From the NCBI RefSeq assembly GCF_001481685.1, contig NZ_CP006867.1, positions 810,001 to 842,000 of the forward strand: a stretch of 32,000 nt of DNA, read 5' to 3'. The notes beneath the pieces were generated by a model. It saw nothing but the letters and a program-made list of their open reading frames with translations, searched no databases and was not told the origin of the DNA. This document shows positions 20,619 to 27,244 of this stretch, in pieces (the stretch's first letter is position 1; each line of letters begins with the position of its first letter). This DNA comes from Ignicoccus islandicus DSM 13165. GTDB lineage: Archaea; Thermoproteota; Thermoprotei_A; Sulfolobales; Ignicoccaceae. The position numbers and the translations under genes are program-made.

Positions 20619-22073
20619 TTAGGTGAAGACCACTTTCCTAACTTTCTTGTATGCAGCTACTTTGCTGTTTACGAAGTTCATTATCTCTTCTTCGCTCACC
20701 TTACCTTTGCATTCTTCCTTTAGTTTGACCTTCGCAACCGGTATTTGGCCGACGTCGCCGGCCGGTTCTCCCTCTACCGTGACTTCCTCTACACACGGGT
20801 GTTTCTGGAGTATTAACTCTAGATCCCTAGGGAATATGGGATAACCTTTGTATTTCAACATCCTCTTTCTAACTCCTTTGAAGTAATAGAATCCTTCCGA
20901 GTCTCTCGAGAGTATATCTCCGGTCCTCAACCACTTCTTTCCATCTACCACAACGAAGGCCTTCTCGTTCTCTTGAGGATCGGGATAACCCTTCATTACT
21001 TGCGGTCCTCTCACTAATAACTCTCCTTGATCCTCAACTTTCTGCAACGTATCCGGATCTACTAGCAACGCCTCTACGCCGGGCAAGGGGAACCCCAAGC
21101 TCCCAATCTTGTGCTTCTGCGGAGTGGTGGCGAATATCTGAGGAGCTTCGGTCATTCCATATACTTGAAGGAGAGGCTTCCCAGTAAGCTCCTCCCACTT
21201 CTGCTGGTCTTGGGGCGGTAGGTAAGCGCCGCCGCTCATTGACCACTTAAGGCTCCTACCAAGCTCCTTCACGAAACCTTCGTCTTCCTTCATCAACGTT
21301 TGGAATACCAAAGGTACAGCTACTACGTACGTGGACGGGAACTTCCTCGATAACTCCTTTATCTTGTCAATGTTAAATCTCTTTAATAGAATTGCTGTTC
21401 CGCCGCTCACGAGCGCGGTCATTAAGGCTGCGTCCAAACCCAGTACGTGGGTCAATGGAATAGTAACTAGGCTCACGTCGCTCCCTTCAATCCCCTCAGC
21501 TTGAACTAAGGGCATTATCGCGCCAGTGAACGACCTATGGGTGTGTATTACTTGCATGGTCCTTCCAGCTATTCCAGCATAATAGAATATTCTCGCATCG
21601 TCCTCGTAATTCACTTCTACTTCGTGTGAACCGGAAGCGTTCTTGAGGTCCTCTTCGTTCACCACTGGGTAATTACTAAGCGTGGCTCCTTCTCTTTCTA
21701 TAACTTCCTTATCGGCAATTACTACCTTCGGTTTCGAGTCCTCGAGTTGCATCTCCAGGTCTTCCTTCTGCGTTAAAGCGTCTACTATGACTACTCTAGC
21801 CCCAGCGTAGAGGCTACCCAGCAAAGCGGTTACGAATTCGGGTCGGTTAAACATTATTAGGAAGGTAGTATCTCCCTTGTTCACTCCGTTTTCCTTCAAT
21901 AAGGACGCAACCGCCTTACTTTTGTCTATTAGCTCCTTATACGTCATTTGAGTACCATCTTCGTACACCAGCGCTACTTTTTCTGGTTCGGCGTTGGCAG
22001 CTTTTTCTATTAATTTATGAACAGGTAATCCGGGGTCCTTGTATTCCATGGCTCTTCGAGCATTCTGAGACAT
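20619..22073 (-). CDS. AMP-dependent acyl-CoA synthetase/ligase (ANL superfamily)
   Basis: AMP-binding signatures are present: YYAGIAGRTMQV (a degenerate P-loop-like motif), YGMTE, TGD and the C-terminal KGYPIFPRDLE. The ORF opens at GTG 22127. ATG 22073 is preferred because the duplicated fragment at 26370-26665 keeps this ATG and homology ends about 15 nt upstream of it. Confidence 0.88.
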   Translation of the reverse strand: MSQNARRAMEYKDPGLPVHKLIEKAANAEPEKVALVYEDGTQMTYKELIDKSKAVASLLKENGVNKGDTTFLIMFNRPEFVTALLGSLYAGARVVIVDALTQKEDLEMQLEDSKPKVVIADKEVIEREGATLSNYPVVNEEDLKNASGSHEVEVNYEDDARIFYYAGIAGRTMQVIHTHRSFTGAIMPLVQAEGIEGSDVSLVTIPLTHVLGLDAALMTALVSGGTAILLKRFNIDKIKELSRKFPSTYVVAVPLVFQTLMKEDEGFVKELGRSLKWSMSGGAYLPPQDQQKWEELTGKPLLQVYGMTEAPQIFATTPQKHKIGSLGFPLPGVEALLVDPDTLQKVEDQGELLVRGPQVMKGYPDPQENEKAFVVVDGKKWLRTGDILSRDSEGFYYFKGVRKRMLKYKGYPIFPRDLELILQKHPCVEEVTVEGEPAGDVGQIPVAKVKLKEECKGKVSEEEIMNFVNSKVAAYKKVRKVVFT

Positions 22074-22204
22074 ATGCGATATATATCTTCGTATAGCGTC
22101 GCGTTCGTATTGCCTTTCCTCTCGCACGAAAAGAGGAATGCCTCGAGGATATCAAATGGTGAGCACTTTGATATCAAGTCTGTTAAGGAATGGTAGTAGC
22201 GGTT

Positions 22205-22252
22205 TGGAGCGCCGCCGGGATTCGAACCCGGGACCTCCGCCTTACCAGGGCG
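22205..22252 (-). repeat. Orphan 3' half of tRNA-Thr (attL-like direct repeat)
   Basis: Positions 22211-22252 are identical to 27175-27216 (42 bp). TGGAGC at 22205-22210 matches 27168-27173 with a 1-nt deletion relative to the intact gene. No tRNA 5' half follows. Confidence 0.9.
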
Positions 22253-22337: not shown

Positions 22338-23612
22338 TTGGTAACGAAGGTGTTCACAGTGGCACTTGAAGTGTCGTTTAGACAGTTGGTGAAAAGCGTC
22401 CCGTCTACCACATATGCCACACACGGTCTTTACATGCATCCTGCTAAATTCATCCCACACGTCGTTAGATTCGCGCTAGAGAAATATTCCAAAGAGGGCG
22501 ATACTGTTTTCGATCCCTTCGCCGGACACGGGACGGTTGGTATTGAAGCGAAGATTCTGAACAGAAACGCAGTTCTCTGGGATCTAAACCCTATGTCTAG
22601 GGTTTTAGCTCTAGCATCAATGTATGACGGCGAGCTTAGGAAGAGCGATTTCATCTTAAAGGACGATTCTGGTTGCGAATTTGTTCCTAGTTGGAGCAAC
22701 ATTGATTATTGGTATCCTGAGGAATTCTTAAACTATTTGAGTAAACTGTGGGGCTTTTGGCACTATAATATATACGAAAGATACAAAGATAGGAACCTTG
22801 AGGCTAAGGCCTTCGTTCTGTCTATACCTCTCTTCAAAATTACGAGGTACTTCAGTTGGGCTGATGAAAAAATCGCTAAAACATATCGATCAAAGTATGC
22901 TAAAAGGAAAGTTGAAAGCTTATTGAAAGGAAATTGGAAAGCCGTGCTCTGGAATATGTACTGGAAAAACGTTAATGTGGTAATTAGGAAAGTATCCGAG
23001 TTCAAAAGGTATCGCCCGCATAAGATCGATGTGGTAATTAAGACCAGTTGGAAGAATAACGACAAACTTGCAATATTTGATAGTATTGTAAACAAGGTGG
23101 ATAGGCACATTGACTTACTAATAACTTCACCACCTTATCTGCAAGCACAAGAGTACATTAGGAGTTTTAAGCTCGAACTCGCCTGGCTCGGATACAATGA
23201 TAGGGATCTCAGAGAGTTATCGTCCAGGGAAATACCGTATAACAATCCTCCAGAGACAAATATCCGAAGCAACACTTACTGGAGCGTGAGAGAAATAATA
23301 GAGGGTTATAATAATAAGAAGTTATTGAAACTCTACGACGCATACTTCAAGTCCATCTTGGGCTTCTTTGAGAGAAACCAGGACGTGGTCGATACTATGG
23401 CAATATTCGTTGGGCCGGTAAAGGTTAGGACTTTGCGCGTTCCAATTGATGAGATAATCCGGGAGCATATGGAGGCTCACGGATGGAGACATGTAGCCAC
23501 ATATATTGATACAATAAAGTCGAGAAGGTTGTTTGAATCCAGAATTAACCCCGCTACTGGTATACTGGACGAGAGGACGCCTACCGAGCATTTATTGGTT
23601 ATTACCAAATAA
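22338..23612 (+). CDS. Site-specific DNA methyltransferase (N4-cytosine or N6-adenine; SPPY motif IV)
   Basis: The AdoMet motif I region reads HPAKFIPHVVRFALEKYSKEGDTVFDPFAGHGTVGIEA (FDPFAGHGT encoded at 22509-22535). The catalytic motif IV, LLITSPPY, is encoded at 23127-23138. About 190 aa separate the two motifs (motif I, putative TRD, motif IV order). The start is uncertain: TTG 22338, GTG 22350 or ATG 22434. Confidence 0.85.
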   Translation: MVTKVFTVALEVSFRQLVKSVPSTTYATHGLYMHPAKFIPHVVRFALEKYSKEGDTVFDPFAGHGTVGIEAKILNRNAVLWDLNPMSRVLALASMYDGELRKSDFILKDDSGCEFVPSWSNIDYWYPEEFLNYLSKLWGFWHYNIYERYKDRNLEAKAFVLSIPLFKITRYFSWADEKIAKTYRSKYAKRKVESLLKGNWKAVLWNMYWKNVNVVIRKVSEFKRYRPHKIDVVIKTSWKNNDKLAIFDSIVNKVDRHIDLLITSPPYLQAQEYIRSFKLELAWLGYNDRDLRELSSREIPYNNPPETNIRSNTYWSVREIIEGYNNKKLLKLYDAYFKSILGFFERNQDVVDTMAIFVGPVKVRTLRVPIDEIIREHMEAHGWRHVATYIDTIKSRRLFESRINPATGILDERTPTEHLLVITK

Positions 23613-23620
23613 AGGAAGGT

Positions 23621-24979
23621 ATGAAGAGGGTTAGTATAATGTCTAGGCCATTGCTGTTGCTTTATATAACTCCCCAAAACTTGTTCAAGACGAACAAGAT
23701 ATTAGAGATGCAATGGTCTGCAACTAAAACACTAACTCCATGTATAATGAAAATATTATATGAAGGAGACATTGATAAACGCCTTCATATATTCGATGAA
23801 ATATTTACTGGACTCAAGAATCTAGAAGACATAGATGAGAATGATGTGTTAGGTAGAGTATCTATTTCTTGGTATTATATCACAAAGCTCCTTCATCAGT
23901 CAATAGGACCTAGACTCGGGAAATTTACAGAGAAGATAATCCAACATTGGATCAATACTAATGGTATCTTTGAGGTATTAGGCACTGACGTCCCTTTGGG
24001 ATCAATTCTTCGTGAATACTTCAAAGTAAGATATAATTCTCGGAAAAAGATTGATTTTGTAATTCGTAGGAGATCTAATATGAGCTATAAGAAGGAATGG
24101 AACTTCATAGAATTAAGAACTAGTGAGCATACTGGGGGGAGAACAGCTCAGTTATCCTTATTGGATAAGTTCAATGATCTACTACGCCTTTTAGAGATAG
24201 ATGGGTACTATACCAAGATAATCAATGTTGCCGAGTCGATCTATATGGATATTGCAATATTATTTTCGGAGCAACATGAACTTTTAAATAATTATAACTT
24301 TAGTAAGGGACGCCTAAGTTCTCTGATAAGTTACATTGTACAAGAGGATCAAATTTTGGGAAAAGTTGAAAAGCTTCTTAACAAAGGATTCGAGCTATTT
24401 GACAAATATTGTAAGGAACATGTAGATCGCGAATCCTTACAAACGGTACTTAATAAGGAGAGAGGATTCTGCTTAAAAGACGGCAAGATCAGTATCATTT
24501 TTAGAATACTGTTTGGAGACGAGTTTTTTAGATATTATACTGGCAAAACCATAAATCAACTTCTTAGTGAGGATCGGAATATAGCTGACGATCTTTGGTT
24601 CTATTTTGGCATTGTTCTAAACGAGTTAAAAGTCGCCAAAGTGTTTGGTAGAACAAATGTAAGGCTTATTTACGATATAATAAAAGAAAATGATATGGCT
24701 AAATCATTTAAAGACATTTATAATATTTGTACGGGCAAGCATAGTTCTCAATGTTCATTAGAGAAATATGTTCGTGAGGTAAATGATATTGTGCAACAGC
24801 TTGCGATTGGCCTATTGAATCACCTAGAACAAAAGAATCTTCCTCTAAGATTACTTGAGACGAACGATCATGTGAAAAATTGGATATATTTGAAAAGATT
24901 AGTCTATGCATCTCTCTCGTTGTATTTAACAAGGGATTTAGTGGGCGATACACACTTCAAACAATGTAAATGGAGTTAA
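23621..24979 (+). CDS. Uncharacterised 452-aa protein; candidate restriction endonuclease or defence effector partnered with the methyltransferase
   Basis: The ORF is intact and starts 8 bp after the methyltransferase stop, preceded by AGGAAGGT (SD-like). It is very AT-rich. It contains no Walker A motif or other motif I recognise. A possible PD-(D/E)xK-like arrangement is E104 ... D145 (KIDFV) ... E164-L-R166 (FIELR). Confidence 0.7.
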   Translation: MKRVSIMSRPLLLLYITPQNLFKTNKILEMQWSATKTLTPCIMKILYEGDIDKRLHIFDEIFTGLKNLEDIDENDVLGRVSISWYYITKLLHQSIGPRLGKFTEKIIQHWINTNGIFEVLGTDVPLGSILREYFKVRYNSRKKIDFVIRRRSNMSYKKEWNFIELRTSEHTGGRTAQLSLLDKFNDLLRLLEIDGYYTKIINVAESIYMDIAILFSEQHELLNNYNFSKGRLSSLISYIVQEDQILGKVEKLLNKGFELFDKYCKEHVDRESLQTVLNKERGFCLKDGKISIIFRILFGDEFFRYYTGKTINQLLSEDRNIADDLWFYFGIVLNELKVAKVFGRTNVRLIYDIIKENDMAKSFKDIYNICTGKHSSQCSLEKYVREVNDIVQQLAIGLLNHLEQKNLPLRLLETNDHVKNWIYLKRLVYASLSLYLTRDLVGDTHFKQCKWS

Positions 24980-26369
24980 TACATGACTAATAAAAATAGG
25001 GATTCTATGATTATAAAGATTTCTATTTTAGTAGACATAAATTTAGTAGGGGTAGAAAGTTGGGTCTTTGTATTGAGATGAAGAGGTAAGTGTGTCCATT
25101 CATCTGGTGTTTAGACGCTATAATATATAAGAATACATAAGACACTCACACTACCAAGATAGTTAGTTTGTTTAGTACCATTGAGAATGTTTTTGCTGAC
25201 TTCTATCCAAGCTTGTACTTGTATTATCTTGGAGAAGATACAAGACCTTTAGAATACGAGTTACATCCTAGTACTAAGCTTCTTGTTAGGAGAATTCTTG
25301 AGACTTATAGAATAACTCAAGTTAAGTGGGAAAATATTACTGGAGTACATTGGTTTTGGAGTTTGAATACTCTCCGCTTGGGGAGCCGATTGTGTCAGTA
25401 AGCATATTCGTATACAATGGTCCATTTGAAGGTGCTGATATAGAGGTTAACGTCCTACTATGGATTTATGATAATCAAGTTATCGAATCTCTCGAATCAT
25501 CTTTAGTATCATTTTGGGTTATCCAACTTTAGATATGCTTTTGAGAAAAGTGGAGAGATATAAATAGATCTAAGATAAGGGTTTCTTGATTGAAAAGCCA
25601 TTAGCAATTATCCAGAAGCTTTATCCGATATTTTGCGACTAGCCAAGATGGCTTGACTCCCTAATAAACAAAAATACTTTCTTATATTAGATACGATTAG
25701 TAGCCCGAAACCTCTGATAGGCGAATTTCACAGTTATACGATCATTATAGTCCTTATAGGAAAGATATTTTGGTGAACATGATTGTTGGAGAAAAAGGAT
25801 ATGAGGTTTATCTTCGGCCAAAGGGATAAAAGAAGTTGCGGAGATAATTATGGGAAATAGTGTTATATTGAAACCTTTAAAGGGTGATAATACATTGGAG
25901 GATGCATTTAACTCGATGGTTGAGGACATATTGTGGCCTTATGTAATGAAAGCTTTAAAGAATACTCGTACTCTGATAAGAGCTACTACAGAGCACTTCT
26001 TTGTCGAGTAGATGAATAAATTGGTCTCATCTAGGAAATAGATATACAAGTTTGGAACCATGCATTTTACTTCAACCTTCATCTTGCCTAAGTCGTTAAC
26101 AAGCTGACACCAAGGATCACCTTTGAGTTTTCTATGTTTTTATTCCTCTTTTCCTCTTACACTTCTTTGCTTTCGATTTTGAGATTACAATAAAAATAGG
26201 CATATATCTTTCAATGTACCTCATAGAACTTTATCGCAAAAATCATTTAGTTGTAGCAATGATGCCGAGAGGTTTGATGGTCTTATTTCTACTACGATCC
26301 ACTAATAGGACTTCCGGTGTCAGACACGATCAAGATAATTTATGTCATTACCCCCTTTCATATCGGAGC

Positions 26370-26665
26370 CTAGCGCCAGCGTAGAGGCTACCGAGTAAGG
26401 CGGTTACGAACTCGGGTCTGCTGAACAATTATTAGAAACGTGGTGTCCCCTTTATTTACCCATTTCTCTCTAAGTAACAAGACCGCTGCCTTACTCTTCT
26501 CAATTAGCTCCTTATACGTCATCTGAGTACCGTCTTCGTACACCAGCGCTACTTTTTCTGGTTGGGCGTTGGCAGCTTTTTCTATTAATTTATGAACAGG
26601 TAATCCGGGGTCCTTGTATTCCATGGCTCTTCGAGCATTCTGAGACATATGCGATATATATTTTC
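26370..26665 (-). pseudogene. Truncated, frameshifted duplicate of the 5' end of the acyl-CoA synthetase gene
   Basis: This segment aligns with 21796-22090. The start-proximal part of about 190 bp differs at only a few positions. The distal part of about 100 bp is much more diverged, and its frame is broken (FLIIVQQTRVRNRLTR versus FLIMFNRPEFVTALLGS). Confidence 0.85.
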
Positions 26666-27167
26666 ACGTAGCTCAGCTCCCCATTACCTTACCCCACTCG
26701 ATTCCAAGGACTCAAAGGTTCCCAAACCGCTTTGCTTTCAAAACACTGAAAGTTCGAAGGCGTCCTCGGAAGAAACACTCGAATCTAGCTTAAAGGGTCT
26801 TTGAGCCTCGCGAATACCGTCGGTCAGGAAACCTTTTTATTAGGACGTGATGATGGAGGGCTTAATTAGACCGTCTTGGATGTTAAGAACCGTTAACGGA
26901 ACGACTCGAGGGTGAATGGTAACCGAGGTCATTACTAAAGAGGTAGGGTGGCAGGAGAATCAGAAGAGAGAGCATATTTCATTAATTAACACGTTGGGGT
27001 CCCATTATCTCCCGCTGCCTTCGTGAGTAGCTTTGAGGTCTTACGTGTATCTTTGAGTTTTCGGCTTCCCTTGACCTCGAAATTTGAACTTCTAGCGAAG
27101 TAATTCGCTACCCTTGCCGAGCTTATTTTCGGATAGATAAAGCCGGAGGTGGGGGAGCTTGTTTAGG

Positions 27168-27216
27168 TGGAGCCGCCGCCGGGATTCGAACCCGGGACCT
27201 CCGCCTTACCAGGGCG
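27168..27216 (-). repeat. attR-like direct repeat inside the intact tRNA-Thr gene
   Basis: This is the partner of 22205-22252. It spans the CCA end, the acceptor 3' strand, the T arm, the variable loop, the anticodon loop and part of the anticodon stem. Confidence 0.9.
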
Positions 27217-27244
27217 GCGCTCCACCAGGCTGAGCTACGGCGGC
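27168..27244 (-). tRNA. tRNA-Thr (anticodon GGU), CCA encoded
   Basis: I folded the cloverleaf by hand. The acceptor stem is GCCGCCG/CGGCGGC and the D stem GCTC/GAGC. The anticodon stem is CCGCC/GGCGG with loop CTGGTAA. The T arm is CCGGG-TTCGAAT-CCCGG. The discriminator is U, followed by CCA. Confidence 0.95.

Follow-up and report, generated by a model that had tools for sequence, protein, structure and literature searches.

The question raised by this locus is whether a protein with a nuclease-like core, in which arginine stands where such cores normally carry lysine, is a restriction enzyme, and if so, of what kind. The protein is encoded on the plus strand at 23621-24979 of a 32,000-nucleotide stretch of the Ignicoccus islandicus DSM 13165 genome (contig NZ_CP006867.1, positions 810,001 to 842,000 of the forward strand), hereafter called the window, and it is 100% identical to EYM_04765 of that organism, which is annotated as 'hypothetical protein'. 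A preliminary description, made from the letters alone, had seen in it an orphan protein with a possible degenerate PD-(D/E)xK core. Based on the open reading frame (ORF), the predicted fold and the linkage to a methyltransferase, we annotate the gene as a putative Type II restriction endonuclease gene, and we propose, with a probability of roughly 0.8, that the product is the endonuclease subunit of a two-gene Type II restriction-modification (R-M) system, that it is built around a PD-(D/E)xK core, and that the system resides on a genomic island at a tRNA-Thr gene. Judged from the sequences, the enzyme belongs to an uncurated family whose core invariantly reads E-x-R instead of E-x-K and which appears remotely related to DpnII/MboI. 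The original idea of a PD-(D/E)xK core is thus supported by three kinds of evidence, namely conservation, fold and methyltransferase linkage, which are presented below in that order.

Conservation and predicted fold of the core

A database search with the window protein retrieved 83 proteins at E <= 1e-3, its own entry included, and hence 82 homologs, here called family A, which are 29-44% identical to it. Nearly all of these come from hot-spring and vent metagenomes and from hyperthermophilic archaea, with Sulfolobales, Desulfurococcales, Thermosphaera, Thermofilum and Thermococcus among the archaeal hosts, while a single protein belongs to Thermotoga sp. SG1. When 1.84 billion representative proteins were searched with a profile, 112 of them matched at E <= 1e-3, among them a sister family, here called family B. 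With 82 database homologs and a sister family the protein is no orphan, but no curated family covers these sequences. Searches for a named relative by other routes were negative: the family profiles matched only spuriously against PDB sequences (RSC8, a mitoribosomal protein), none of 72,556 plasmids or 50,697 phage genomes was matched by tblastn, the names of cluster members were just 'hypothetical protein' and 'DNA modification methylase', and nothing relevant was found in the literature searched for Ignicoccus islandicus restriction systems, the BstEII structure or Arg-for-Lys variants.

Conservation was read from an alignment of 36 family-A homologs with 30-45% identity. D145 (codon 24053-24055, plus strand, as for all codons of this gene), which occupies the 'PD' position, is invariant in 36/36 sequences, as are both E164 (24110-24112) and R166 (24116-24118) of the E164-L165-R166 triplet (24110-24118), which fills the '(D/E)xK' position with arginine in place of lysine. 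E104 (23930-23932) forms part of an R98-x-G100-x3-E104 block and is shared by at least 90% of the family-A sequences; it aligns with the invariant E108 of family B and with E152 of DpnII, just as D145 aligns with the invariant D147 of family B and with D201 of DpnII. Directly after the third strand follows an invariant stretch, S168-E169-H170-T171-G172-G173-x-T175-x-Q177-x-S179-L180-x-D182-K183, of which the loop S168-E169-H170-T171-G172-G173 (24122-24139), invariant at all six positions, is the signature of the family; the pattern RxSEHTGG[RK]T derived from it retrieved relatives from genome contigs. K183 (24167-24169), also invariant in family A, is a candidate for a 'migrated' catalytic lysine, a role that we consider further below. 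In the C-terminal domain, D323-D324-x-W326 is likewise invariant, and in total about 30 further positions besides the acidic residues do not vary among the aligned homologs. Conservation in homologs thus agrees with what the preliminary description had singled out, including the arginine at the place of lysine; what it had taken as degenerate is instead a conserved variant under selection, and the arginine is a conserved hallmark of the family and not a sign of decay. This could not have been concluded from the motif as such, as D-x(8-30)-[DE]-x-[KR] pairs occur 9 times in the window protein compared to 10.7 +/- 4.6 times in 500 shuffled versions; the bare motif is not above chance, and it is conservation together with structure that lifts it above chance. 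In a side survey, the same RxSEHTGG[RK]T pattern was found at 5 loci in a scan of one genome per species, none of them from Ignicoccus islandicus, although the window contains the pattern; the genome of this organism may be outside the collection.

The AlphaFold2 model of the whole protein, built with the family alignment, has a predicted local distance difference test score (pLDDT) of 91.9 and a predicted template-modelling score of 0.87. According to DSSP, the model is laid out over the core as a helix (76-114), a strand (117-125), a short inserted helix, two further strands (143-150 and 159-168), a second helix (174-190) and a fourth strand (206-215), so that the modelled core has the alpha-beta-beta-beta-alpha-beta topology of PD-(D/E)xK enzymes. 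We delimit this core to residues 76-217 (23846-24271, plus strand; helix 1, strands 1-3, helix 2, strand 4) by the AlphaFold secondary structure, Foldseek and the hhalign alignment to the DpnII core. E104 lies on helix 1, D145 near the start, that is at the N-terminal end, of strand 2, E164 and R166 two residues apart on strand 3 and thus on the same face, and D182 and K183 on helix 2. Modelling places D145, E164 and R166 on the elements on which they are expected in such a core, so that neither of the outcomes that the preliminary description would have taken as refuting, a position far from any nuclease-like fold or a lack of conservation in homologs, was obtained. A model of residues 50-242 alone (pLDDT 77.6) shows the same core elements and the same placement of residues.

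Foldseek searches against the PDB returned top lists consisting nearly entirely of PD-(D/E)xK nucleases, both for the whole model and for the core. With the whole model, EcoO109I ranked first (E 2.3e-3, probability 1.0, template-modelling (TM) score 0.51 on the target), followed by BstEII, BbvCI, FokI, AgeI and PfoI. With the core model, BstEII ranked first (E 2.9e-3, probability 0.99), and was followed by arenavirus and bunyavirus cap-snatching endonucleases, EcoO109I, MspJI, a Cas4-family protein, HamA, Mus81, RecB and BamHI. Beyond the core, the protein continues into a C-terminal domain (residues 229-441, 24305-24943, plus strand), defined by the secondary structure of the model and by conservation in families A and B, in which the invariant D323-D324-x-W326 block is found. 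The preliminary description had taken the remaining 270 residues or so as helical and devoid of recognisable motifs; the domain, of about 230 residues, is mainly helical in the model, but not entirely so, as it contains a small beta-sheet at residues 258-298.

Family B consists of metagenomic proteins of about 370-430 residues (for example P0112 and P0129, with members found among P0112-P0167), for which there is no Pfam model. It is homologous to family A over the full length (hhalign probability 98.9, E 1e-17) and has the same two-domain layout, with a shared invariant Glu on helix 1, Asp on strand 2 and Arg on strand 3, a shared TGG loop and a shared (W/A)DDLW block, which reads WDDLW in the C-terminal domain of family B. 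Its helix 1 carries R-x-Q-G-x3-E, the last residue being E108, and its third strand and the following loop read I-Q-x-R-S-R-D-D-T-G-G-T-T-A-K, with the signature RSRDDTGGTTAK. The two families differ in that strand 3 has Q-x-R in family B (Q160 in at least 90% of the sequences, R162 invariant) and E-x-R in family A, in that R-D-D-T-G-G stands at the columns of the SEHTGG loop, where E169 is matched by Asp, and in that the invariant lysine of family B, K173, falls on Q177 of the window protein. Arginine at the strand-3 position is thus invariant across families A and B, in 69 sequences altogether.

Linkage to a DNA methyltransferase

The gene directly upstream, which the preliminary description had overlooked, encodes the partner DNA methyltransferase (22338-23612, plus strand), a member of the N6_N4 family according to PF01555 (1.2e-12) and PADLOC MTase_II (1.6e-22), with a TSPPY motif. 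Its stop codon is separated from the ATG at 23621 by 8 nt and both genes have the same orientation, so that they are adjacent and could be transcribed together. NCBI names the protein 'cytosine methylase' and its UniRef relatives are named 'cytosine-N(4)-specific', and the TSPPY motif is invariant in 6 orthologs of the methyltransferase. An SPPY motif IV is typical of N4-cytosine methyltransferases. The motif together with the source annotations points to N4-cytosine methylation, and the partner is probably an enzyme forming N4-methylcytosine (m4C).

A survey of homolog neighbourhoods had been suggested earlier as a way of testing the nuclease idea, and it proved informative. We fetched 12 further family-A loci, which represent 10 distinct places with the window not counted, and an orthologous methyltransferase (48-54% identity) adjoins the endonuclease homolog in every one of them (12/12). 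The pairs occur with either the methyltransferase (M) or the endonuclease (R) gene first and in unrelated contexts, which include chromosomal sites, contigs with a Rep_1 gene and a prophage-like region in Thermotoga. Such conserved M-R adjacency in unrelated surroundings is the hallmark by which Type II restriction-modification pairs are recognised in genomes. The same holds for the sister family, as 3/3 family-B loci (L008-L010) have an adjoining methyltransferase that belongs to the family of the window enzyme and shares 35-41% identity with it. In addition, an N6_N4_Mtase domain was found in 3 of the 53 remote profile-search matches that were scanned; its carriers are probably three long proteins (P0119, 830 aa; P0126, 823 aa; P0158, 728 aa), which would then be fusions of the two R-M components. 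Among the fetched family-A pairs, the methyltransferases (48-54% identity) are better conserved than the endonucleases (32-42%), as is usual in R-M systems, and this suggests that the recognition sequence is shared or similar across the family.

Two of these settings deserve mention. The homolog P0024 and its methyltransferase are encoded on metagenome contigs of 7.5-8 kb from the JGI (Joint Genome Institute; L002 and L003) together with a Rep_1 rolling-circle replication initiator, and these contigs probably represent a small archaeal plasmid or virus that carries the M-R pair. The bacterial pair of Thermotoga sp. SG1 (L001, LNDD01000005.1), whose endonuclease is 36-37% and whose methyltransferase is 54% identical to that of the window, lies beside RecT, helix-turn-helix and S24-repressor genes in a prophage-like setting, and its presence implies transfer from archaea to bacteria among hyperthermophiles.

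Relation to known enzymes and the missing lysine

Among named families, the GATC-specific DpnII/MboI enzymes come closest, through a remote profile-profile link of the core. MboI/DpnII enzymes have been assigned to the alpha lineage of the PD-(D/E)xK superfamily, with a model described by its authors as experimentally validated (PMC2441816, PMC3424549, PMC548270). The identity of the DpnII sequence used here was verified: it matches PF04556 with 335.7 bits over positions 1-277 of 278, is 99% identical to P0184, and is 100% identical over 76% of the length to P0255, for which NCBI gives the name 'type II restriction enzyme DpnII [Streptococcus pneumoniae]'. Comparison of family A with the DpnII profile by hhalign gave a probability of 82% (E 1.1e-5), which rose to 90.7% (E 1.3e-6) for the domain-only alignment, so that the profile-profile comparison proposed in the preliminary description does align the family-A core with the DpnII core. 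In this superposition R98, G100 and E104 fall on the invariant R146, G148 and E152 of DpnII, D145 on D201, E164 on E214 and R166 on N216. Remote homology of the two cores is likely on these sequence data, which we regard as moderate evidence given the low diversity of the DpnII profile (18 proteins, 64-82% identity to the first sequence). The link is carried by family A, because the alignment of family B with DpnII was not significant (probability 6%). As to whether K183 matches K233 of DpnII, the alignment beyond E164 consists of low-confidence columns only, and we do not claim that the two are equivalent.

These similarities raise the possibility that the window protein is a divergent but true member of the DpnII/MboI family that cuts GATC. 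P0056, the homolog from Thermotoga, goes under the name 'DpnII family type II restriction endonuclease' at NCBI, 4 of the 36 family-A members have sub-threshold matches to PF04556 over the core region at E <= 1, and the hhalign probability of 82-91% covers the catalytic core. Both groups have R-x-G-x3-E in helix 1, (K/R)-x-D-F-V-I in strand 2 and h-h-I-E in strand 3, neither has lysine two residues after the glutamate of strand 3, and both consist of a stand-alone R subunit with a separate methyltransferase. However, the best PF04556 score in family A, that of P0075, amounts to 18.1 bits (E 6.9e-4) against a gathering threshold of 23 bits, the window protein itself has no match to PF04556 at E <= 1, and PF04556 is found in none of the 53 scanned remote relatives at E <= 0.01. 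Furthermore, only about 65 residues align (approximately 97-167 of the window protein), and the architectures differ, as DpnII has 288 residues with the core in the C-terminal half, whereas the window protein has 452 residues with the core in the N-terminal third, an extra C-terminal domain of about 230 residues and the SEHTGG signature loop. The methylase of DpnII systems is a Dam-like adenine enzyme, whereas the partner methylase here is of the N6_N4 type with TSPPY and is annotated as N4-cytosine-specific, and the window shows no depletion of GATC. We therefore consider it very unlikely that the enzyme is a GATC-cutting DpnII relative in the strict sense, and membership in DpnII/MboI (PF04556) was rejected on the gathering score and on the whole-protein architecture of about 280-290 residues, with the type of partner methylase also speaking against it.

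The best structural matches, the solved Type IIP enzymes EcoO109I (PDB 1wtd, whole model) and BstEII (PDB 9ibq, core model), share the fold class of the window protein (probability 0.99-1.0, E about 2e-3, TM 0.3-0.5) and have no detectable sequence similarity to it. EcoO109I is of interest here in that it has a non-canonical EPD-XXK active site (PMC3424549); according to the literature it nevertheless keeps the strand-3 lysine, where the window enzyme has arginine.

Several points weigh against the proposal that the window protein is a PD-(D/E)xK restriction endonuclease and have to be set beside the evidence in its favour. The protein gave no significant match in Pfam, NCBIfam, PADLOC, PHROGs or PDB sequences, and no curated nuclease profile thus recognises it; the same result for the first four collections bears out the earlier remark that it lacks Walker A, HNH and GIY-YIG motifs. 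None of the 82 homologs of family A is a characterised protein, and family B, being likewise uncharacterised, provides no functional anchor. The Foldseek scores are weak, with no E <= 1e-3 and TM scores of 0.3-0.5, and the spatial clustering of E104, D145, E164, R166 and K183 is inferred from the topology of the model. The canonical lysine is absent, and a survey of the superfamily (PMC3424549) lists no active-site variant with arginine at that position. In family B, E164 is replaced by Gln, so that it may be dispensable as a metal ligand. Finally, when palindrome avoidance was examined in the approximately 27 kb of host DNA within the window, the strongest deviation was that of CGCG (z = -2.7), which is uninformative in a 32-kb sample or for a system acquired recently.

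To turn to the missing lysine, the superfamily feature of a lysine two residues after the acidic residue of strand 3 is replaced by R166 in family A, by R162 in family B and by N216 in DpnII, and each of the three families has an invariant lysine within or just before helix 2 (K183 in family A, K173 in family B, K224/K233 in DpnII). As the PD-(D/E)xK superfamily tolerates both replacement and migration of the motif lysine (PMC3424549), its absence from strand 3 does not exclude membership at the level of the fold. In Pa4535 the catalytic lysine has moved onto the second core helix (PMC3424549 section 10), and in COG4636 it has migrated within the sequence (PMC551604). The window protein might thus be the same restriction enzyme working with a different chemistry, in which the catalytic lysine has moved to K183 and R166 contacts a phosphate or base of the DNA or stabilises the sheet. 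This would be consistent with the invariance of K183, its position on the second core helix (174-190), the absence of the strand-3 lysine from all three families and the two precedents. On the other hand, the lysines do not fall into one column, K173 of family B being aligned with Q177 and not with K183, the alignment with DpnII is of low confidence beyond E164, and the invariance of R166 across both families would be unusual for a purely structural residue. We give this version a genuine chance, albeit one clearly short of even. The likeness to Pa4535 (1y0k), which also lacks the strand-3 lysine and has an invariant lysine on the second core helix (PMC3424549 section 10), and to COG4636 (Tt1808), in which the lysine is found elsewhere in the sequence (PMC551604), is one of active-site logic only, without a sequence relationship or a specific structural one having been found, and in the window enzyme, unlike in these two, an invariant arginine fills the vacated position.

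Loss of the lysine could also be taken as a sign of inactivation, in which case the protein would have kept the fold and would serve beside the methyltransferase either as a dead enzyme or in a non-nuclease role such as that of a DNA-binding or regulatory subunit. Non-catalytic and re-purposed proteins with the PD-(D/E)xK fold are known (PMC3424549), and the family has no characterised member to speak for activity. Yet the acidic residues and some 30 other positions are invariant at an identity of only 30-45%, the same arginine is fixed in the sister family, which indicates that this position is under selection for a function, the proteins are strictly paired one-to-one with a methyltransferase, fusions included, a pattern that is the signature of restriction enzymes, and the family spreads on mobile elements. 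A dead enzyme is, in our view, a highly improbable explanation.

Under our preferred reading of an active restriction endonuclease, the system might work as follows. The methyltransferase would protect the host copies of the recognition sequence, while the endonuclease would act as a homodimer that makes double-strand cuts at unmethylated sites of incoming DNA. E104 of helix 1, D145 of strand 2 and E164 of strand 3 would bind the catalytic Mg2+, with E169 in the loop after strand 3 as a possible additional metal ligand, and the positive charge of the motif lysine could be supplied by R166, by K183 of helix 2 or by both. The C-terminal domain might contribute to dimerisation, to sequence readout or to both. 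Going further, we speculate that there is a catalytic sub-class of its own among PD-(D/E)xK restriction enzymes, made up of families A and B and perhaps also of DpnII/MboI. Its members would have given up the strand-3 lysine for good, with Arg in that place in A and B and Asn in DpnII, catalysis would rely on Arg166 and/or the helix-2 lysine together with the SEHTGG loop, and the Ignicoccus enzyme would be hyperthermostable with a recognition sequence not yet represented among characterised enzymes; taken as a whole, this is a tentative and rather doubtful proposition.

The assignment would move EYM_04765 and about 80 metagenomic relatives from 'hypothetical' to a predicted restriction endonuclease family and define a sister family besides. 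Since neither family has a curated profile, this could improve the annotation of defence systems in hyperthermophilic archaea. In addition, the hosts grow near 90 C and the partner is a probable m4C methylase, which makes these proteins candidate thermostable restriction enzymes with a possibly new specificity. The invariant arginine in two families represents a test case for the plasticity of PD-(D/E)xK active sites, although it does not overturn current understanding, in which restriction enzymes are known as fast-evolving PD-(D/E)xK proteins with variable signatures.

The gene start and the tRNA-Thr island

The coordinates of the preliminary description were exact with respect to the ORF of 452 residues, the codons of E104, D145, E164 and R166 and the methionines at positions 7, 30 and 43, the last three having been put forward as alternative starts. 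Translation from the ATG at 23621 gives 452 residues, and from the ATG at 23639, the start used by NCBI (Met7), 446 residues. M30 and M43 were ruled out as start codons, because a block conserved in the family-A alignment, 'LYLxP' (residues 13-18), lies upstream of both, whereas Met7 stays a candidate; both M1 and M7 are possible starts, and a Shine-Dalgarno-like hexamer, GAGGGT, can be read from the sequence 7 nt upstream of M7.

The low G+C content that had been noted for this gene was reproduced, with 0.341 for the endonuclease ORF (34%) compared to 0.464 for the window (46%) and 0.418 for the upstream methyltransferase ORF; on a 1-kb scale the minimum (0.333-0.336) is reached over the 3' half of the endonuclease gene and the spacer beyond it. 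Both genes are carried by a low-G+C island of about 5 kb at a tRNA-Thr gene. The intact tRNA-Thr(GGT) (27168-27244, minus strand; ARAGORN, Rfam tRNA 69.3 bits) provides the right boundary through its 3' two-thirds (27174-27216), and a 43-nt partial copy of this 3' part, a 100% direct repeat of 27174-27216, forms the left boundary (22210-22252, minus strand). The foreign origin suggested earlier from composition is thus supported by the low G+C content and by the perfect 43-nt tRNA-Thr direct repeat that flanks the island, and the arrangement looks like the result of tRNA-targeted integration. Taken together with the plasmid-borne and prophage-borne homologs, the tRNA-Thr island shows that the R-M pair is mobile.

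The island lacks an integrase ORF and, the M and R genes apart, consists of DNA that looks non-coding. Downstream of the endonuclease gene lies a 1.4-kb spacer of low G+C content (24980-26369, 0.34-0.37), which according to the ORF list has no long ORF and has stops in all six frames, and in which a six-frame Pfam scan as well as blastn and tblastx against the homolog loci were negative for remnants of an integrase or other gene. The spacer is followed, still within the island, by a duplicated fragment (26370-26672, minus strand) of the 5' end of an acyl-CoA-synthetase-like gene that is located on the other side of the island (20619-22127, minus strand), the two copies containing direct repeats D1 and D2 of 86-87% identity. 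Comparison of 26370-26672 with 21796-22097 reveals a copy of about 300 bp, of which the central 170 nt or so are nearly identical. The distance from the acyl-CoA-synthetase sequence to the tRNA repeat is 113 nt on the left and 502 nt on the right, and this suggests either that a long stretch of the target was duplicated or that the sequence was acquired from a related strain.

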